Assembly (NCBI GenBank): GCA_038065455.1
Contig: JBBTQX010000002.1
Span: forward strand, 6,779 to 70,778
DNA: 64,000 nt
From: Patescibacteria group bacterium
GTDB lineage: Bacteria > Patescibacteriota > Minisyncoccia > UBA6257 > GWB1-50-10
Direction: 5' to 3'
The translations under genes were made by a program, and so were the position numbers. The notes beneath the pieces are model-generated. The model did no database searches. It was not told where the DNA came from and was given only the letters and a program-made list of their open reading frames with translations. Within the stretch, counting starts at the first letter, position 1, and the number at the start of each line of letters is the position of its first letter. This document shows, in pieces, positions 8,283-64,000 of the stretch.

Positions 8283-8328
8283 ATTATTGTATTTTTGTTT
8301 ATTTTTATATTTAACCTTGACCTTTTGA

Positions 8329-8389
8329 CCGGGCAGTAGAAATTCGATCAGTTCTTCTGCCGTGTTGCAATCGAATTTTCACTGCCCGG
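8329..8389. repeat. E-family inverted-repeat element, short copy E1 (61 bp)
   Basis: CCGGGCAGTAGAAATTCGAT .. ATCGAATTTTCACTGCCCGG, near-perfect 22-bp arms; flanked by a TTGA direct repeat; the right arm encodes the last three codons and the stop of grpE. Confidence 0.6.
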
Positions 8390-8864
8390 TTGACAATTTC
8401 ACCCTGACGGGTTTTATGACTTTATTGTGCAACTTGTATCCTCCCGATACCTCTTCCGCTATCGTTCCCGGCGGCTCCGCGGCATTCACTTCGCCTATCG
8501 CTTCCGCCAGATTAGTATCGAAAGGGTCGCCGCGCTGAATTTTGATTCTTTCGAGGCCGTGTTTTTTCAAAATATCCTCGAGCTGACTCCTGATCAGCTC
8601 CACTCCTTTCTTCGCCGGATCGCCGTCCTTCAAGACCGAGAGGCTCAATTCGAAGCTATCCAAAGCGGGAATAAGGTCGGCTATGAGCATTTCATTCGAG
8701 AACTTGGCAAAGTTTTCCAGACGCCCCGCTTCTTCTTTTTTGTAATTAATCAGGTCGGCTTTCGCCCGCTTCCACCCGTTCAGATACTCCTCTTTTTCCC
8801 TTTCCAGTTTCGCAATCGGGTCTTCCGGAATATTATTATTATTTAAATCTTGTTCTTCGGACAT
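8379..8864 (-). CDS. grpE: nucleotide exchange factor GrpE
   Basis: Position between hrcA and dnaK, size, and GrpE-like C-terminal beta domain. Confidence 0.8.
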   Translation of the reverse strand: MSEEQDLNNNNIPEDPIAKLEREKEEYLNGWKRAKADLINYKKEEAGRLENFAKFSNEMLIADLIPALDSFELSLSVLKDGDPAKKGVELIRSQLEDILKKHGLERIKIQRGDPFDTNLAEAIGEVNAAEPPGTIAEEVSGGYKLHNKVIKPVRVKLSTGQ

Positions 8865-27447: not shown

Positions 27448-28749
27448 TTAATTTGAAACTCTTTTGATGTCGGCTCCGAGGAAGCTCAAGCGCTCCACGA
27501 TCTTTTCGTACCCCCGGTCTATTTCATGCACGCCCAATATTTCCGATTCCCCTTCCGCAATCAAAGCCGCGAGCACATGGGCGATGCCCGCCCGCAAGTC
27601 CGGCACCGTGAGCGTCGCGCTATGAAGTTTCGTCGGCCCCTTCACGATTGCGCTATGCGGACAATTCTTTTCTTTGAAACGGCAAGGAACTTCGCTCAAA
27701 CATTCATTTACCACTCTAATGTCCGCGCCCATTAAATTCAAGTCTTCAATATAGCCGAAGCGAGCTTCATAGACGGTTTCGTGGATGATTGATTCGCCCT
27801 GCGCCTGCGTGAGCATAGTCAGAAACGGCTGTTGCCAGTCCGTCATAAAACCCGGATGGGTGTCGGTTTCCAACTTGATGCCGGTCAATGGCCGCGCCCG
27901 GAAGAAAAGAATGCCCTCACTCGTCACTTCATACTCTCCGCCGATTCGCCTTAAATTATTCAAAAATGTGATGAGGTCGCCCTGGTCGGCTCCCTTCACC
28001 AATATCTTCCCGTTCGTCGCGACCGCAAGGCACGCGAAAGAAACGGCCTCATTCCTGTCCGGCAATACCTTATGCCGCGCGCCATACAGTTTTGGAACGC
28101 CGTAAATCGTGACGGTGCGGTTTGTGCCAATCTCGATGATTGCCCCCATTTTCTGGAGCATCTTTATCAAGTCCGTGATTTCCGGCTCGACGGCAGAATT
28201 GATAATGGTTGTCTTCCCCTCGGCCAAAACCGAAGCGAATATTATCTGCTCCGTCGCACCGACGCTGGGATATTTTAAGGCAATAGTCGCTCCCTTGAGC
28301 CTTCCCGTGATTCTCGCCTTATATGAATCGGGGCTAGCTTCTATCTCTGCTCCAAGCGCCTTCAGGGATTCCAAATGCATATCCACGGGCCGCGGGCCGA
28401 TCTTATCTCCGCCCACGATCGGCACCTCCGCCTCCCCCGCCCGATTCAGAAGCGGCCCCAAAGCCAGAATCGATACTCGATTTTTTTGATTCAGGGAAAT
28501 CGCCTTGGTGTTTTTTATCTCCGGCGTCCTTATGACCAGATTGGAATCGATGGATTTTATTTCGCTTCCCAGCGCCACGCAAAGCTCTTTTACGATTTCC
28601 GCATCCCCGATTCGGGGGAAATTCTCGAACACGCACTCCTCATCGGTTAAAAGCGAGACGATGAGCATTTTCGTCGCCGCGTTCTTCGCCCCGGCCAGTT
28701 TTATTTCGCCCGTGAGCGGCCGCCCACCCCGGATTATGAATTTATCCAC
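27448..28749 (-). CDS. murA: UDP-N-acetylglucosamine 1-carboxyvinyltransferase
   Basis: EPSP-synthase fold motifs (K..GAKNA); 433 aa; apparent GTG start. Confidence 0.85.
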   Translation of the reverse strand: MDKFIIRGGRPLTGEIKLAGAKNAATKMLIVSLLTDEECVFENFPRIGDAEIVKELCVALGSEIKSIDSNLVIRTPEIKNTKAISLNQKNRVSILALGPLLNRAGEAEVPIVGGDKIGPRPVDMHLESLKALGAEIEASPDSYKARITGRLKGATIALKYPSVGATEQIIFASVLAEGKTTIINSAVEPEITDLIKMLQKMGAIIEIGTNRTVTIYGVPKLYGARHKVLPDRNEAVSFACLAVATNGKILVKGADQGDLITFLNNLRRIGGEYEVTSEGILFFRARPLTGIKLETDTHPGFMTDWQQPFLTMLTQAQGESIIHETVYEARFGYIEDLNLMGADIRVVNECLSEVPCRFKEKNCPHSAIVKGPTKLHSATLTVPDLRAGIAHVLAALIAEGESEILGVHEIDRGYEKIVERLSFLGADIKRVSN

Positions 28750-28757
28750 GCATCCAT

Positions 28758-28831
28758 TATACCCGGTATTACAATGTTTAGAAAAGTTGCTGGTTCATTT
28801 TTTTTTGATTAGGTTTGTAATACCGGGTATA
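28758..28831. repeat. long hairpin (17-bp perfect stem TATACCCGGTATTACAA / TTGTAATACCGGGTATA, 40-nt loop) in the murA 5' region
   Basis: Perfect inverted repeat 9 nt upstream of the murA start and 15 nt from the GIY-YIG element. Confidence 0.5.
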
Positions 28832-28846
28832 TTATTAAAGGTATGT

Positions 28847-29128
28847 ATCCCGTTAGAGACATTTCTATGTATTACAATTACGTTTTAAGAAGCAAAAAAG
28901 ATGGGAAATGGTATACTGGCTACACGAATGATCTACGGAAGCGCTTTAGCCAGCACAATAGCGATAAATTCCCTCAATGGACCAAAAATCGGGGTCCTTT
29001 TGAAATCATATACTATGAAGCCTGCAAAGATCTGCAAGATGCAAGGTCGAGGGAATATTATCTAAAAACAGGAATGGGTAAACGTTATATCAAAAATAGG
29101 CTAAAGCGCTTCCTGTCTCTAACGGGAT
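28847..29128 (+). mobile_element. G-family coding element: 282-bp unit with perfect 15-bp TIRs enclosing only a GIY-YIG nuclease ORF
   Basis: ATCCCGTTAGAGACA at 28847-28861 and TGTCTCTAACGGGAT at 29114-29128; AT-rich (~37% GC); flanks ATGTAT / ATGAAC; the TIRs encode the ORF's N- and C-termini. Confidence 0.7.
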
Positions 29129-29130
29129 GA
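28867..29130 (+). CDS. GIY-YIG nuclease family protein (YhbQ/YazA UPF0213-like, ~87-95 aa)
   Basis: YYNYVLRS..DGKWYTGYTNDLRKRFSQHN ... RGPFEIIYYE...AR.REYYLK. GIY-YIG motifs with the catalytic Arg and Glu in place. An alternative ATG at 28843 lies inside the left TIR. Confidence 0.7.
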   Translation: MYYNYVLRSKKDGKWYTGYTNDLRKRFSQHNSDKFPQWTKNRGPFEIIYYEACKDLQDARSREYYLKTGMGKRYIKNRLKRFLSLTG

Positions 29131-30371
29131 ACCTCAAAACCCGGCGAACTCTCTTTTACTTCTTCATTCTCATATTCGTCCTTGCGGGCGCTTATCTCCT
29201 CGCAACCGCCCAGGGGCTGGTCCTGGATTTCAAAAATCTGAAGATTACCGGCACTGGCGGGCTCTTTTTGAAGTACGTTCCGCCCGACGCGACTGTGGAA
29301 TTGAACGGCAAAAAAACCGATGTTTCGCCCGGCCTCGTTTCGAGCGGAATTTTCATCTCTAAATTAATTCCCGACGAATACCGGGTAAAGATTTCAAAAC
29401 CGGGCTTCTCTGCCTGGGAAAAGACACTCGCGGTTAAGAACGGCGCGGTGGCTTCGGCGAGCCAAATCAGGCTCTGGCCCGAAGTCTGGGATTTGAATGT
29501 CATTACGACGAGCTCCGTCCGGGATTTCCGGCTCACGGGTGCGGGTCTAGTACTCCAAGGAAAAAACGGAACTCTTCGGCTGGACGGATTTTCTTTGGGA
29601 AACAGGAGTGTCGCTTTGAGCGGGCCGGACTCGTCCCTCATCGTTACGACCGATGAAAAAGAAAATTTTGTAACCAATCTCGAAGATTTGTCACCCGCGC
29701 TCGATATCGTCCGGCTCTTTAATTCGCTGAAACAAAGCCAGTTGAATCTTCCCGGCACGATCATTCCTAAAAATTACTTCCTTCATCCCTTTAACGCCAA
29801 AATTCTCATCACGACCGGAAACGCGCTTTACTCGCTCGATATCAAAAGATTGAGACTTGAAAAACTGACCGATATGGCAGGAATTAAGAAGGCGGAATTA
29901 AGGGGAAACGAAATGTTTCTTTTCGATATGAAAGACAATATAACGACATTCAATCTTTTTCTCCAAACTGCCAGAATTTATGAATCGACCTCCACCGAAG
30001 CCATCGGAATAGGAGCGAGCCTGGCCGGCTTGCCGGCCCCCGACGGGAAAAAGATTTTTTTGCTTTCAAAAAACGACACGCTTTCTTTGAAAGTTTTGGA
30101 AAATTATTATGCCGACGGCGAAGTGAGAAAGGGCGATATGTGGCCCGTTTTTTCCGACCGGGGCAAAATAACGGATTTCAAATGGTTGAATGGCAATTCT
30201 AATTATGCGCTGGTACTTGCCGAAAAAAACTTGTTCATCGTTGAAACCGACCGGCGCACCCCGCAGAATATCCGACTCATATCCCAAGGAGTGGAAAAAT
30301 TCGCGACGGAGGGAAACGATCTCTATATCCTCAAAACCGACGGCACGCTTCTGAGGGCGAGTTTGAAGTAG
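29127..30371 (+). CDS. PEGA-domain envelope protein (hypothetical)
   Basis: N-terminal TM helix; PEGA-like segment (VPPDATVELNGKKTD...YRVKISKPGFSAWEKTLAVKNG). Its ATG is formed by the element's flank. Confidence 0.45.
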   Translation: MNLKTRRTLFYFFILIFVLAGAYLLATAQGLVLDFKNLKITGTGGLFLKYVPPDATVELNGKKTDVSPGLVSSGIFISKLIPDEYRVKISKPGFSAWEKTLAVKNGAVASASQIRLWPEVWDLNVITTSSVRDFRLTGAGLVLQGKNGTLRLDGFSLGNRSVALSGPDSSLIVTTDEKENFVTNLEDLSPALDIVRLFNSLKQSQLNLPGTIIPKNYFLHPFNAKILITTGNALYSLDIKRLRLEKLTDMAGIKKAELRGNEMFLFDMKDNITTFNLFLQTARIYESTSTEAIGIGASLAGLPAPDGKKIFLLSKNDTLSLKVLENYYADGEVRKGDMWPVFSDRGKITDFKWLNGNSNYALVLAEKNLFIVETDRRTPQNIRLISQGVEKFATEGNDLYILKTDGTLLRASLK

Positions 30372-30381
30372 AAGACGAATT

Positions 30382-30750
30382 TTAAAAAATATCAGAGACT
30401 CTAGTCAGTGCAAGCCGATTCATGACTTCATCGTCATAGTTATCCATATGGACACAGATGCAAAGTAAGACGATAACGGCGCCTTTTACTGCGAACCACA
30501 TTCGGGGATACTGATTGGGTCTTAAATTATCATTAGGAACAACGAGTTCTACTTTCCATAAGGTCCAGATATCATTCTGCGTTACCCTGTGTAATTTTGC
30601 CGGGGCTATTATTTGCTTCGGATTCTCCGGATTGAATTGAAATTCGCACAACCTCTTGAATGAATCTAAACCGTCTTTAAGATGACGAAATCGCCGCTCA
30701 AGGGCGGCGATTTCTTTTTCTATGCCGTCATGATACAGAAATTCAATCAT
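30382..30750 (-). CDS. hypothetical 122-aa protein with a C-terminal hydrophobic helix; candidate toxin partner (PanT-like) of the upstream antitoxin
   Basis: 4-nt ATGA overlap with the upstream gene; AT-rich; hydrophobic stretch MWFAVKGAVIVLLCICV; no recognisable family. Confidence 0.35.
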   Translation of the reverse strand: MIEFLYHDGIEKEIAALERRFRHLKDGLDSFKRLCEFQFNPENPKQIIAPAKLHRVTQNDIWTLWKVELVVPNDNLRPNQYPRMWFAVKGAVIVLLCICVHMDNYDDEVMNRLALTRVSDIF

Positions 30751-31238
30751 AGGTCGCTGAAATCCGTACCGCGATAGAACGCGAGTTCATATGAAATATC
30801 CTCTCCCGGCTTCGTCCCAACATATGGGGCCTCAGCATGGGAAAGTTCGCCAAGCTGTTTTCCATTCAATTGGCCGTATTTTATGGCAACGCGATCAAGC
30901 ATTCTTCTTTCTTCGATATCTAATATTAATTCATCCGGTTCCGCCAAAGAACTGTAAACCTCAATTGGATTATATCCATTTCCCAATTCGACGGCTTTGG
31001 CAAGAAGTATTTTTTTCTCGGACATTTCCGATATAATTTTCTCAAAAGAGACTGGTACTGGCCCCATAGGAAGGGCTTTATATGTATCCCCAGTTATAGG
31101 TTTCTGATTCTTTTCGAAGAAATCAAAATCAGCAAAATAAAGGAGTTTTGCTAGTTTTTTCTTCCCTTGGATTTCACCTCCTAATTTCTTACAGAGATAT
31201 AGTATAACTTGCTGATATTTCTTCTTTTGGAGGGTCAT
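30747..31238 (-). CDS. Panacea/DUF4065 (SocA-like) antitoxin-domain protein
   Basis: KKLAKLLYFADFDFF...PITGDTYKALPMGPVPV matches the DUF4065 signature (KLqKLLYfaD...GPV). Confidence 0.55.
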   Translation of the reverse strand: MTLQKKKYQQVILYLCKKLGGEIQGKKKLAKLLYFADFDFFEKNQKPITGDTYKALPMGPVPVSFEKIISEMSEKKILLAKAVELGNGYNPIEVYSSLAEPDELILDIEERRMLDRVAIKYGQLNGKQLGELSHAEAPYVGTKPGEDISYELAFYRGTDFSDL

Positions 31239-33296: not shown

Positions 33297-33896
33297 TTAA
33301 CGCGAATAGAATTGGCCGACCACGTTTATATCGAAAGGTAGTTGCACTCCGGTAACGGGCGGTTTTGCCACGCACTCGCCTTTCAATTCCTCCGCTTTGA
33401 GCTTAAGCCACTCAGGCGGGGTGTATTGCTTCAACCGGAGTTGAATATCATCGAAAATCTTCGCCGAGCGGGATTCGGGCCGCACAGCAATAATGTCTTT
33501 AACCCTAACATAATAGGAAGGAATTGTCACTTTTCGGCCATTCACGTGGATATGGCCGTGGGAGACGAGCTGGCGGGCGATTCTCGGAGACTTCGCGAAT
33601 CCCAAAAGAAAAACCACGTGGTCGAGGCGGCTTTCGAGCTTGGTCATAATGCCGTCTTTGTCGGAATTCCGGAACATTCTCATCATCTGATGATTATTCA
33701 GCCCGTAAAGAATTTGGATTTTCTGTTTTTCCTGGAGCTGCTTTCCGAATTCGGAAACGGAGTGGCGCGCCTGGCCGTGCTGGCCCGGGCGGTAAGGATG
33801 GCGTACCATCGCGCACTTCGGCGAATTACAGCGGTCTCCCTTGAGGAAGAGTTTGATGCCCAGCGATCTTTCTTTTTTCTCTTTGATTCTTTTCAT
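33297..33896 (-). CDS. rpsD: 30S ribosomal protein S4
   Basis: Zn-ribbon CNSPKC, S4 domain. Start at the internal Met (MKRIKEKK), whose ATG is the flank of MITE B. Confidence 0.85.
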   Translation of the reverse strand: MKRIKEKKERSLGIKLFLKGDRCNSPKCAMVRHPYRPGQHGQARHSVSEFGKQLQEKQKIQILYGLNNHQMMRMFRNSDKDGIMTKLESRLDHVVFLLGFAKSPRIARQLVSHGHIHVNGRKVTIPSYYVRVKDIIAVRPESRSAKIFDDIQLRLKQYTPPEWLKLKAEELKGECVAKPPVTGVQLPFDINVVGQFYSR

Positions 33897-34018
33897 CCCG
33901 TTTAGAGACAGGATACGCTTAAGAAGCATATCCGTGAAGCATTAGCCGATTCGACTTTATTGGATTCTATTGATTGTTTGATAATCATGTTATTCATAAG
34001 TTTGATGTCTCTAACGGG
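33897..34018. mobile_element. G-family MITE copy B (122 bp)
   Basis: CCCGTTTAGAGACA..TGTCTCTAACGGG; flanks TTCAT|..|ATTCAT; subterminal hairpin GGATACGC-ttaagaa-GCATATCC. Confidence 0.75.
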
Positions 34019-34030
34019 ATTCATATTTTT

Positions 34031-34175
34031 ACCAGGCAGTGAAAATGCGATTGCAAATCGTGATTGAATCGACGATTCTCGCTATTTCCAATGACCTTTT
34101 ATTTATATTCATATGTTTTGATATTATGATGGTTTTCGATTTGAATTCAATCTAATCGCATTTCTACTGCCTGGT
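34031..34175. repeat. E-family inverted-repeat element E3 (145 bp)
   Basis: ACCAGGCAGTGAAAATGCGATTGCAAATCG .. AATCTAATCGCATTTCTACTGCCTGGT; interior homologous to E2 (GATTGCAAAT, TGAATCGA, TTGACCTTT, CATAT); ends on the rpsK stop codon. Confidence 0.6.
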
Positions 34176-34624
34176 TAAACCCTTCTGGTCTTGGCCGGAC
34201 GCGGTCCGTTGTGCGGAATCGGCGTCACATCCTTGATGGACAGTATATTCAAGCCCTTGCCGGCGAAAGAACGGATGGCGGAATCGCGGCCGCTACCCAC
34301 GCCGCGCACGAAAATCTCCACGGTATTCGGGCCGGTCTTTTCCAATTTCTGGGCAATGGCTTCGGCGACTTTGGAAGACGCGAAAGGAGTCGCCTTCTTG
34401 GGTCCGGAAAATCCCAAAGAGCCAGCGGACATCCATGTAATCACGGCACCCTTATCGTCGGTTACGGTAATAATGGTGTTATTATAGGTGGCTTGAATAT
34501 AGATACGGCCGTTTTCCCAGTGCTGTTTGGATGTGGACGAAGATTGCTTAGCCGGCGCCTTTTCGGCCGTCCCCGCTTCCTTCACCGCTTCGTCTTTGGT
34601 TTTTATGACTTTTTTCTTTCCCAT
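34175..34624 (-). CDS. rpsK: 30S ribosomal protein S11 (N-terminal lysine/alanine-rich extension)
   Basis: Conserved S11 core (A.I.ATFNNTI.T.TD..G....W.S.G..GF.G.KK.TPFAA). Confidence 0.85.
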   Translation of the reverse strand: MGKKKVIKTKDEAVKEAGTAEKAPAKQSSSTSKQHWENGRIYIQATYNNTIITVTDDKGAVITWMSAGSLGFSGPKKATPFASSKVAEAIAQKLEKTGPNTVEIFVRGVGSGRDSAIRSFAGKGLNILSIKDVTPIPHNGPRPAKTRRV

Positions 34625-35181: not shown

Positions 35182-35298
35182 TTATCCTTGTCTTTGTTTA
35201 TGCCTCGGGTTCTTGGCACATATGACGTAAACCCGCCCTTTTCGACGGACGGTCTTGCAAACGCTGCAGATTTTTTTTACCGATGCTCTGACTTTCAT
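35182..35298 (-). CDS. rpmJ: 50S ribosomal protein L36
   Basis: Hand translation [38 protein letters not shown], with the CxxC..C..H zinc ribbon. The ATG is supplied by the MITE C flank. Confidence 0.85.
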
Positions 35299-35418
35299 CC
35301 CGTTAGAGACAGGATACGCTTAAAAAGCGCATCCGTGATATGTCGCTTGGTTTGATTATTCCGACCTGTTGGTTATTCATATTGATACATTATTCAAAAT
35401 TTGTTTGTCTCTAACGGG
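35299..35418. mobile_element. G-family MITE copy C (120 bp)
   Basis: CCCGTTAGAGACA..TGTCTCTAACGGG; flanks TTCAT|..|ATTCAT; hairpin GGATACGC-ttaaaaa-GCGCATCC; interior homologous to copy B (GTTATTCATA). Confidence 0.75.
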
Positions 35419-35430
35419 ATTCATAAAACT

Positions 35431-47142: not shown

Positions 47143-47172
47143 CTAGGTGGTGTCTTTAAAGACACCACCTAG
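47143..47172. repeat. P-family palindromic unit (CTAGGTGGTGTCTTT|AAAGACACCACCTAG)
   Basis: 30-bp perfect palindrome with a T-run on the plus strand; intergenic between the Cys-rich gene and eno. Confidence 0.6.
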
Positions 47173-62829: not shown

Positions 62830-64000
62830 TTATCCCCAGGGTGGTGTCTTTAAAGACACCACCCTGTTTTTCGACGTTTTCAAAATGAAAGTTGCGATTG
62901 CCAGATAATAAGCAACAATAAAAATCCAACCCAAAGACACGCTTAGAGATAGATTGAAGTTGCCGAAGAATTCTATCAGTCCCGTCTCGACTTTCAATAG
63001 CGGCCAAACGAACCAGCCGGCGATGAGCGCGAGATAATGCGAGATGCCGGAGAGAACGGCGACGGCGAAGCCGAGCATCATCGTATACGGAATAAGCTCC
63101 AGAACCAGAACATTCGAGATGAGCGAAATAGGCGAAAAATTCCCGAAGTTCTGGATTAATATCGGAAGAACCATAAGCTGAGCGGAGCCGGTCATCAGGA
63201 GATTCTCCCGCCAGGAAAAAGTTTCTTTTTTCCCGCCGACCGGCAAATTGAAAAGCTCTTCGAGCGCCGGCTTCAAATATACGATGCCGATGAGCGCGAG
63301 GAATGAAAGTTCAAAACCGGCATCGAATACCAACACCTTGGGATTTATAAGCACCATCAAGAGTCCCGCTAAAGTTATGGCATTCCGCGGATTGAAGATG
63401 CGGCCGCTCTCGGTCGCAACGACGACGAGCGCGCCCATAATCGCCGCTCGCACGACCGATGCCTCCGCTCCGGTCATAAGCACGAAGGCGACAAGGAAAA
63501 TGAAGGCGACAATAAAAGCAGTCCTTCTTTTCAAGAATGAAGTGAGTAAAGCCATTGCCGCCACGATGACGATCGAGACGTTGTAGCCCGAAAGCGCGAC
63601 CAGGTGCGTCGTGCCGCTTATCTGCATCGCCACTTTGAACTCGGGAGAAAAATCGCTCCGCTCACCCAAGGTCAGGCCGGAAAGAAAAGCCGCTTCCTCG
63701 ACCGGCAATATCTCTCCGAAATTATCCACAGTGGAATTCTTGAGATTGAATAAAAAAGATTTGAAGGGCGCGCCCTTATCTTCCGCGATTAGCTTAACTT
63801 CGGGATATGAAACAATTCCGCTTATTCCCTCCTTCGCCAGATATTGGGCATAGCCTGCCTGCGCAGGCAGGCCTCCCAATTCCGGTTTTTTGACCGCGCC
63901 ATTTACCGAAATCAAGTCGCCATAATGGAATTCGGGATAGCGCGGAGCATTTACGAGAATTTTCACCTTGGCGCCGGAAAATTCCGTTTGGACGTAAAGA
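62830..64000 (-). CDS. comEC: ComEC/Rec2 competence protein, N-terminal OB/DUF4131 plus transmembrane competence domain (runs off the window)
   Basis: Polytopic membrane region with ComEC-like motifs; stops 19 nt before the metallo-beta-lactamase-domain ORF. Confidence 0.6.
   Translation of the reverse strand, partial: LYVQTEFSGAKVKILVNAPRYPEFHYGDLISVNGAVKKPELGGLPAQAGYAQYLAKEGISGIVSYPEVKLIAEDKGAPFKSFLFNLKNSTVDNFGEILPVEEAAFLSGLTLGERSDFSPEFKVAMQISGTTHLVALSGYNVSIVIVAAMALLTSFLKRRTAFIVAFIFLVAFVLMTGAEASVVRAAIMGALVVVATESGRIFNPRNAITLAGLLMVLINPKVLVFDAGFELSFLALIGIVYLKPALEELFNLPVGGKKETFSWRENLLMTGSAQLMVLPILIQNFGNFSPISLISNVLVLELIPYTMMLGFAVAVLSGISHYLALIAGWFVWPLLKVETGLIEFFGNFNLSLSVSLGWIFIVAYYLAIATFILKTSKNRVVSLKTPPWG
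62837..62866. repeat. P-family palindromic unit (CAGGGTGGTGTCTTT|AAAGACACCACCCTG) inside the 3' end of the comEC transmembrane ORF
   Basis: The 24-bp core is identical to the 47143 copy; outer pairs covary (CTA/TAG versus CAG/CTG). It encodes the last ~10 codons (..SLKTPPWG) and sits just before the stop. Confidence 0.6.

Follow-up and report, generated by a model that had tools for sequence, protein, structure and literature searches.

The 64,000-nucleotide stretch of Patescibacteria DNA that was analysed here (the window) contains a 280-bp unit that very probably belongs to a family of mobile elements, in which a GIY-YIG nuclease is the sole gene and which is accompanied by short non-coding derivatives. 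The mobility of this element family is demonstrated in silico, by precise empty sites in related genomes.

The GIY-YIG unit in the window

The positions of the unit and of the related features are given in Table 1. We observed that two 15-bp sequences, ATCCCGTTAGAGACA and TGTCTCTAACGGGAT, are exact reverse complements of each other and bracket an ORF whose product starts with MYPVRD and ends with RFLSLTG. An earlier note on this DNA, made from the sequence alone, had described a perfect 15-bp terminal inverted repeat around a lone GIY-YIG ORF of ~90 aa, and both repeats as well as a 95-aa ORF were indeed present. It had also called the unit AT-rich relative to its neighbours, and the GC content was found to be 0.37 for the unit (vs 0.50-0.54 for the neighbours). 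The unit is wedged between murA and a PEGA-like gene whose ATG it was said to create; this holds, as the last A of the element together with TG rebuilds the ATG, which overlaps the TGA of the GIY ORF to form ATGA. The only ORF in the unit encodes the GIY-YIG domain, in agreement with the earlier statement that no transposase of a known family is present.

Table 1. Positions in the window of the GIY-YIG unit, its parts and neighbours, and the short copies
Feature	Position	Strand	Evidence or remark
GIY element proper (TCCCG...CGGGA), 280 bp, inserted DNA	28848..29127	+	empty sites in L088/L089 and 4-bp flank identity
GIY-YIG ORF, 95 aa	28843..29130	+	PF01541 E=5.5e-16; ATG and TGA lie outside the element, in target/duplication
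P1 5' arm, left terminal inverted repeat, including 1 flank base	28847..28861	+	ATCCCGTTAGAGACA; covariation
P1 3' arm, right terminal inverted repeat	29114..29128	+	TGTCTCTAACGGGAT, encodes ..SLTG; covariation
P2 5' strand, GGAAGCGCTTT, codons R-K-R-F	28937..28947	+	fold of the window copy; alignment columns 100-110
P2 3' strand, AAAGCGCTTCC, codons L-K-R-F-L	29103..29113	+	alignment columns 266-276; 1 nt from P1 3' arm
Target duplication, left copy, TGTA (TGAA with one change)	28844..28847	+	
Target duplication, right copy, TGAA	29128..29131	+	its TGA is the GIY stop
Host PEGA-like gene, 414 aa, start codon is the target	29127..30371	+	
murA, upstream of the GIY unit	27448-28749	-	
Short copy without ORF (122 bp), inserted at the start of rpmJ (L36)	35298..35419	-	empty site in L087; fold (P1 and stacked hairpin)
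Flanks of the rpmJ short copy, TTCA	35294-35297 and 35420-35423		given on +
Short copy without ORF (124 bp), inserted at the start of rpsD (S4)	33896..34019	-	empty sites in L087 and L088; fold
Short copy without ORF (121 bp), at the start of a gene for a PBP2-like protein of 617 aa	19491..19611	-	fold

When the window was searched for the 13-mer core of the repeat with up to 2 mismatches, 8 occurrences were found, and these formed four inward-facing pairs. Shuffling gave an expectation of 0.94 on average, and 8 occurrences were reached in 0 of 100 shuffles. Beyond the window, the paired arms recur in other genomes and metagenomes, with the same architecture in hundreds of assemblies. Among the findings that the earlier note had named as speaking against a mobile unit were that the 13-mer might be a single-orientation regulatory motif, and that the copies might be an assembly artefact. 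Both are contradicted, the former by the constant pairing of the motif and the latter by the recurrence of the element in many independent assemblies.

The GIY-YIG protein

The ORF product scored 59.1 bits against PF01541 (cut-off 22.6), and the residues Y11, Y13, Y24, T25, G26, R32 and E59, which fall in the catalytic-motif columns, were invariant in 36 homologues. A sequence/profile search of the PDB returned the UPF0213 protein BH0048 (1zg2) as the best match with E=2.8e-11, followed by EF2693 (1ywl) and then SLX1. With Foldseek, 1zg2, Slx1 (6sei, 6seh, 4xlg) and 1ywl were all placed above I-TevI. In the AlphaFold model (pLDDT 83.7), a beta-beta-alpha-beta-alpha core is followed at the C-terminus by a long helix rich in basic residues (77-94), and the protein consists of a single domain, with no separate one for DNA binding. 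By sequence and by predicted structure, the protein is assigned to the Slx1/UPF0213 branch of the GIY-YIG superfamily, which it resembles more closely than the UvrC/I-TevI lineage. The likeness to the UPF0213 proteins YhbQ and YazA that had been proposed earlier is thus borne out, UPF0213 being the top match by sequence and by fold; to yazA of B. subtilis, the identity is ~41% over residues 6-75.

The codon-position entropy was 1.41 at third positions, as against 0.73 and 0.59 at the other two. As the variation at third positions is about double that at the first and second, the protein is under purifying selection. In a search of a representative library, the number of hits was 15,646 with a threshold of E<=1e-3 and 2,985 with E<=1e-10, and 22 clusters passed E<=1e-30.

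Empty sites in related genomes

We compared the insertion sites in the window with those of relatives. In L087, a genome with 93-95% DNA identity and the same L36 protein, both short copies of the ribosomal operon were absent, and a single ATGAA was present at each site. Between infA and rpmJ, L087 reads GATTGTAAAGTTTT ATGAA AGTCAGAGC with no insert, while the window has the same flanks, with ATGAA, the insert TCCCGTTAGAGACA...TGTCTCTAACGGG and a further ATGAA between them. The rpsK-rpsD junction was empty in L087 and also in L088.

The GIY unit itself could be compared in L088 and L089, where the PEGA protein is 81% identical. The gap between murA and the PEGA gene is 23 bp in these two and contains no GIY gene; the junction reads ...TTATTAAAGCT joined directly to ATGGAACTCAAAACCC. 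In the window it reads ...TTATTAAAGGT ATGTA, then the unit (TCCCG..GIY..CGGG), then ATGAACCTCAAAACCC. As the junction is empty in L088/L089, the difference corresponds to a precise addition of 284 bp at the PEGA start codon, made up of the GIY gene and the repeats. The earlier note had pointed to the murA loci as the place to look for empty sites, and had held that relatives with the gene but without the repeats would speak against a mobile unit; the relatives were found to lack the gene itself. These precise empty sites indicate that the GIY unit is a real insertion.

Target site, duplication and orientation

For the analysis of flanks, the element was defined as TCCCG...CGGGA, and 81 distinct, oriented short copies were used; a metagenome scan for short units had given at least 120 stretches. 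The 4-nt flanks were identical in 53 of the 81 short copies (TGAA 29, TGGA 8, TTCA 6, TGAG 3, and a few others). Since the 5-nt flanks were identical in only 1 of the 81, the duplication is of 4 bp. Among the GIY units with T...A ends, 27 of 48 had identical 4-nt flanks, and 24 of these were TGAA; the GIY copy of the window has TGTA on the left vs TGAA on the right. The 5-mer TTCAT/ATGAA, which the earlier note had implied as the flanking duplication, was therefore replaced by the 4-bp TGAA on the strength of these counts. Elements with C...G ends carry 4 extra inverted bases, and their flanks are mostly inverted (TTTA...TAAA), with no clear direct duplication.

In 42 of 47 GIY elements, an ORF of 60 aa or more starts at the ATG of the junction. 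Gene starts are plausible for only about 36 of the 239 ATGAA sites in the window; the insertions, however, lie at gene starts in all four cases. Judged from these junctions, the target is usually the A/TGAA of a start codon (the slash marks the point of insertion), with TGAA as the consensus duplication. The GIY ORF begins at the host gene's own ATG, with whatever ribosome-binding site precedes it, and has no stop codon of its own; it terminates on the TGA of the downstream duplication. The host ATG is rebuilt from the terminal A of the element and TG, which leaves an ATGA stop/start overlap, and the host ORF upstream often stops at the TGA of ATGAAT or at the TAG inside CCGTTAG. Each insertion creates new A/TGAA sites at its ends, which accounts for the tandem junctions ...CTCTAACGGGATGAATCCCGTTAGAG... 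in L010 and L065.

With respect to orientation, the clear cases among the short copies were 44 forward and 9 reverse relative to the host ATG. In GIY units with ATG flanks, the ORF was always co-oriented with the gene at the 3' junction.

Two conserved helices, P1 and P2

The two arms of the terminal repeat, which is 14-15 bp long, pair to form a helix, P1. In 70 distinct elements, 96% of the cells were paired; 5 pairs had changed on both sides, giving 64 double-change cells. This covariation was reached by 0 of 500 shuffles, and slid controls fell to 31-43% paired. The variants included GAGCCA/TGGCTC (PVRA with FLALTG), GAGGCA/TGCCTC, GAGAAA/TTTCTC and GAGTTA/TAACTC.

A further helix, P2, was found independently by RNAalifold on 69 full elements; it is stacked on the 3' end, and the stack of P1 and P2 amounts to 25 bp. 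Here GGAARCGYTTN (R-K-R-F) pairs with NAARCGYTTCC (L-K-R-F-L), 155 nt apart, and covariation is strong at synonymous third positions. The pair counts by alignment columns were AU 34 and GC 33 for 104:272, CG 51 and UA 13 for 107:269, UA 63 and CG 5 for 108:268, and UA 30, CG 26 and GC 6 for 110:266. Homogenisation of a direct repeat, or gene conversion between the two KRF sites, was considered as the origin of P2 and was rejected: the 5' AAACGC goes with the 3' AAGCGT, which is the rule of an inverted repeat. The alignments thus indicate that P1 and P2 are maintained by selection through compensatory changes, synonymous positions included. Within P1 and P2, there were 24 G.U pairs vs 8 A.C pairs. 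In GIY units, folding is more stable for the sense strand than for its complement, by a mean of 4.8 kcal/mol (p=3e-6), a difference that is possibly compositional; the short copies showed no such asymmetry.

In the short copies, we found P1 together with a hairpin that is flush with the 3' arm. This hairpin is P2 with its loop deleted. Its stems vary by genome (GGATGCGCTT, GTTGTC, GTCGTC, GTTGCG), while the base TACGG...CCT is kept.

Short ORF-less copies

Three ORF-less copies of ~120 bp with the same termini had been reported for the window, and units of 121, 124 and 122 bp were located. All three are on the minus strand, directly upstream of the ATG of a host gene. The arms of the copy at the PBP2-like gene carry a compensated change from G:C to A:T. 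As the three copies of the window are only ~76% alike, they give no sign of recent activity in this genome. In L140, which comes from a different metagenome, we found a short copy 89% identical to the rpmJ copy of the window, at an unrelated locus. Short copies also adjoin GIY copies in other genomes (L017, L022, L025 with three, L037, L038, L055, L065 and L077).

The short copies and the GIY unit have more than their ends in common. A stretch of 28 nt, extending past the 15-bp repeat, is common to the short copies and the 3' end of the GIY gene, and both internal end-regions of the GIY unit were also found in the short copies. The relation of an autonomous element to its MITEs, suggested in the earlier note, is thus supported by shared ends, internal end-regions and helices. 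The short copies are indeed short, ORF-less and multi-copy, with terminal repeats, a duplication, and ends in common with a coding element, as is the case for MITEs. On balance, we regard the ~120-bp copies as internally deleted, non-autonomous derivatives of a 280-bp element of autonomous type, whose only protein is a GIY-YIG nuclease of ~87-95 aa.

Other roles for the short copies were also evaluated. They are not translated N-terminal extensions of host proteins of the Rickettsia RPE type, as two of the three have in-frame stops and the third is out of frame. Promoter or terminator signals in the short copies did not rise above chance. A scan of the whole window with Rfam gathering thresholds for known RNA families and ribozymes, group I introns included, matched only a tRNA.

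Size and spread of the family

At least 3343 relatives of the ORF were found among 90%-identity clusters, most of them 94-95 aa long, with a MNPVRD start and a FLSLTG end. In contigs from one genome per species, at least 463 stretches encode a relative, mostly in Patescibacteria. The best 80 of these (at least 463) relatives showed 63-77% amino acid identity, and their bin labels outside Patescibacteria were Omnitrophota, Planctomycetota, Nitrospirota, Elusimicrobiota, Desulfobacteraceae and a Woesearchaeota archaeon; the assignment to phyla rests on these bin labels and should be read with caution. Such similarity (63-77%) between members of different phyla points to horizontal transfer. Translation of the 5' end gives NPVRD in part of the elements and IPLE(T) in the rest, and as the same DNA is read here in different frames, its conservation is at the level of nucleic acid and not of protein. 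In L004, an identical protein occurred in two contexts on low-coverage contigs, where a chimeric join is possible.

Among adjacent arm pairs in 1.49 Mb of fetched loci, the spacing was ~100-150 bp (142 pairs) or ~250-300 bp (88 pairs), with a few below 100 bp and none above these two classes. No unit above 400 bp bounded by these arms was seen in this 1.49 Mb of related loci, a sample that is element-centred, as the loci were fetched through the element itself. The viral contigs of IMG/VR gave no relative. GenBank phages and PLSDB plasmids gave only GIY-YIG genes of ~35-41% identity, which lacked the C-terminal/repeat part.

Many further representatives end in ..YLTG, and this subfamily gave 2,301 hits. 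It has its own perfect repeat, TTTACCCCGTGAGATA / TATCTCACGGGGTAAA, around units of 277-278 bp. As this divergent subfamily has a repeat of its own, the repeat-bounded architecture is not confined to one lineage. P2 was not recovered in the ..YLTG subfamily, for which the search covered 7 sequences only.

How the units may move

We favour, with some reserve, the reading that the GIY-YIG nuclease itself drives the mobility of the units. Its ORF is conserved, occupies the whole length of the unit and is the only one there; every subfamily comes with a repeat of its own, and in the 1.49 Mb of fetched loci no other coding unit shares these ends. We propose that the ends of the element are recognised by its nuclease, probably in the form of a folded single strand, in the manner of the structure-specific Slx1-type enzymes. 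The nuclease would make breaks at the ends of the element and a 4-nt staggered break at TGAA, and the joining and gap filling would be carried out by the nuclease itself in some way, or by the host ligase and polymerase. Recognition of the folded P1/P2 junction, and not of a long double-stranded sequence, would fit with the structure specificity of Slx1-type enzymes. Through the overlapping ATGA, the host gene would be translated by termination-reinitiation, which would make the insertions nearly harmless. The stop/start overlap and the forward bias of the GIY copies argue that host translation is coupled to the element, and such a role at the RNA level could coexist with a role of P1 at the DNA level. 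In its fullest form, this proposal takes the ~90-aa Slx1-type protein as an undescribed class of transposase that acts on folded P1/P2 ends by cut-and-paste and leaves a TGAA duplication at start codons. This we put forward tentatively, at less than even confidence. The enzymes of the GIY-YIG superfamily act by hydrolysis of DNA, and neither strand transfer nor ligation is known from them. Those that have been characterised (I-TevI, Eco29kI, Hpy188I) leave short 3' overhangs, the fill-in of which would give no duplication.

These features of GIY-YIG chemistry speak against the favoured reading, as does the lack of a separate DNA-binding domain in the protein. There are two other readings in which the units are still mobile. 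The GIY-YIG gene might be cargo, with all the units moved in trans by an unlinked conventional transposase, e.g. a DDE enzyme with 4-bp duplications, and the nuclease would then serve another purpose, selfish or for the host. DDE transposition is classically recognised by terminal repeats, a duplication of fixed length (4 bp here) and the use of both orientations, which GIY-YIG chemistry does not obviously yield, and an unlinked helper gene could have escaped a sample of element-centred loci. We nevertheless consider this quite unlikely: the arms bound no unit above 400 bp in those 1.49 Mb, repeat and GIY gene go together in different phyla and also in the second subfamily, whose repeat is another one, and a passenger gene would hardly be expected to fill the unit and to borrow both its start and its stop codon from the target. 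The homing-like system that the earlier note had offered as an alternative also fits poorly, and we rate it as rather unlikely. Here the nuclease would cut only empty TGAA/start-codon sites, and host repair would copy the element in through microhomology or strand annealing; P1 and P2 would act in the mRNA, where they would ensure translation of both the nuclease and the host gene downstream, and would not serve DNA recognition. GIY-YIG nucleases are the classic homing enzymes, and several of our observations lean this way, namely the excess of G.U over A.C pairs, the better folding of the sense strand of GIY units, the predominance of forward short copies with strict co-orientation of GIY ORFs and the 3' gene where the flanks are ATG, and the ATGA overlap, which suits translational coupling. 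However, the target loci are many and unrelated, with only ~5 nt in common, short copies in reverse orientation exist, terminal repeats and a duplication of fixed length are foreign to homing, and the protein has none of the DNA-binding domains with which homing enzymes recognise long sites.

That the units are not mobile at all, and represent either an artefact of assembly or a conserved host gene whose RNA carries a regulatory hairpin, we find hardly credible. An inverted repeat could act as an mRNA stem, and the identical protein in two contexts in L004 may be chimeric. Against this stand the precise empty sites at three loci, the same architecture in hundreds of independent assemblies from many phyla, the target duplications, and a composition unlike that of the neighbours.

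Comparison with known systems

The stand-alone Slx1-like/UPF0213 proteins (YhbQ, YazA, BH0048, EF2693) share the fold and the motifs of the ORF product and are likewise minimal single-domain nucleases; yazA adjoins a tRNA methyltransferase gene. Unlike these proteins, the element family has a conserved basic C-terminal helix that ends in ..RFLSLTG and is encoded by the terminal repeat, and it has inverted repeats, target duplication, a variable location and ORF-less derivatives. A 2006 survey of the GIY-YIG superfamily treated the prokaryotic Slx1-like proteins as vertically inherited repair enzymes and did not mention repeats (PMC1564403). In a study of the Hainich groundwater, a GIY-YIG protein was listed among the genes transferred from Patescibacteria, with no further analysis (PMC12455944).

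The family resembles pairs of insertion sequences and MITEs (IS5- and IS630-type) in its terminal repeats, fixed duplication, preferred target, use of both orientations and short derivatives. By the usual definition of an insertion sequence, it has the terminal repeats with a fixed duplication and the precise empty sites, and it does not have a transposase of a known class. Unlike insertion sequences, it encodes no DDE, DEDD, HUH, serine, tyrosine or Cas1 enzyme, its sole ORF being that of the GIY-YIG protein of ~90 aa, and the target provides this ORF with its start and stop codons. The smallest known autonomous insertion sequence is of ~700 bp, and the 280-bp unit lies far below this. With IS200/IS605 elements and the REP/RAYT systems (REPtrons), it shares folded ends, here with covarying helices and a subterminal hairpin, an enzyme gene that is flanked by inverted copies of the cognate repeat, and insertion beside a short specific sequence. 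Those systems, however, use HUH (Y1) tyrosine enzymes, lack both a duplication and true terminal repeats, and always insert in one orientation relative to the target, whereas the element has no HUH domain, makes a 4-bp duplication and is found in both orientations.

Like the free-standing GIY-YIG homing genes (T4 Seg; the mobE/gene 60 cassette), the unit is a small selfish nuclease gene between conserved genes, and like the gene 60 cassette it brings along features by which the host gene that it interrupts can still be translated. Homing genes lack terminal repeats and a duplication, use one long cognate site and carry extra DNA-binding domains, whereas the element is present at many loci with a target of ~5 nt. 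Its many unrelated loci, its repeats with duplication and its single-domain protein thus set it apart from free-standing homing endonucleases. Penelope-like retroelements are mobile elements whose target is likewise cut by a GIY-YIG nuclease on the favoured reading, but these are eukaryotic and move through RNA by means of a reverse transcriptase, which the element lacks.

The earlier note knew of no insertion sequence family with such an architecture, and none was found in our full-text literature search, which returned no description of such a GIY-YIG element. Transposon classes are defined by their enzyme, and by enzyme type the family appears to be undescribed and to lie outside all known classes.

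Significance

If the favoured reading is correct, GIY-YIG would be added to the DDE, DEDD, HUH, serine, tyrosine and Cas1 types of transposon, and at 280 bp the element would be by far the smallest autonomous transposon known. The covarying P1/P2 fold offers a concrete substrate for biochemistry, and a tiny structure-guided nuclease could be of interest to developers of tools. A part of the large UPF0213/Slx1-like group, whose members have long passed for housekeeping proteins of DNA repair, would then consist of selfish DNA. For genome-reduced bacteria, this would explain why many such proteins are found on short contigs only, and why Patescibacteria have several genes annotated as 'GIY-YIG nuclease family protein'. 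The comparison also suggests horizontal transfer across phyla. The element would represent a low-cost form of parasitism, in which it inserts at a start codon, uses the translation signals of the host and hands back an overlapping start codon; with the ribosome-binding site, start codon and stop codon all borrowed, the insertions would be translationally silent.

Other inverted-repeat elements and a gene cassette in the window

Between murA and the GIY unit (the element that carries the GIY-YIG ORF), we observed a distinct 70-bp inverted-repeat element, present as a single copy within the window. It was missing in L088, L089 and L090, where GCATCCATTATA joins TTATTAAAG directly. A third inverted-repeat family was also seen. 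Its 34-kb copy lies immediately upstream of the rpsD short copy (an ORF-less derivative of the GIY unit) and is not present in L087, a genome 93-95% identical in DNA. The copy at 8.3 kb spans only ~65 bp, and each of its arms has changes that compensate those in the other.

A two-gene cassette that resembles a toxin-antitoxin pair is located between the PEGA gene and rpsI. As rpsI directly follows the PEGA gene in L088, without the cassette, the latter looks like another insertion. Two identical palindromes, each followed by a T-run, also have weaker relatives in the window, and are probably shared intrinsic terminators.

Additional features of the window
Feature	Position	Strand	Description
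70-bp inverted-repeat element	28762-28831		ends TATACCCGGTATTACAA / TTGTAATACCGGGTATA
Third inverted-repeat family	34031-34179		ends ~21 bp (ACCAGGCAGTAGAAATGCGAT)
Third inverted-repeat family	8324-8390		ends ~21 bp (ACCAGGCAGTAGAAATGCGAT)
Two-gene cassette	30382-31238	minus	122-aa ORF + 163-aa SocA_Panacea-domain protein
Palindrome	47146-47169		GGTGGTGTCTTTAAAGACACCACC, 24 bp, perfect
Palindrome	62840-62863		GGTGGTGTCTTTAAAGACACCACC, 24 bp, perfect
Weaker relative of palindrome	37484
Weaker relative of palindrome	44875

Variants and contexts of the GIY elements on other contigs

The variant elements with C...G ends (L007, L037, L046, L081, L084 and others) have an inverted repeat that is 4 nt longer, TTYACCCCG...CGGGGTRAA, and no direct duplication was visible at these elements. 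The downstream gene starts 3-30 nt past the element end, and a Shine-Dalgarno-like GGAGG is often found just upstream of the 5' end.

When the Hainich contig L004 (1-2520) was compared with window 27653-29130, the two were 99.9% identical as far as the GIY ORF's final nucleotide, beyond which L004 carries recR and rplU in place of the PEGA gene. Either this is a second, identical GIY copy upstream of recR, or two loci were joined at the repeat by low-coverage assembly.

Units of the second, divergent subfamily (protein ending ..YLTG) were flanked by tyrosine recombinase ORFs in L227 (1-1464) and L228 (427-2000), one ORF with the N-terminal SAM-like domain and the other with the catalytic domain. 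It looks as if the recombinase gene has been split in two by the element. Besides two GIY units, L227 has a 60-bp mini unit, all three lying within 1.5 kb.

At L065 (3994-4410), a short copy comes immediately after a GIY unit, with one TGAA common to both. This contig was assigned to a Woesearchaeota archaeon bin; should that assignment be correct, the GIY element family is also found in DPANN archaea.
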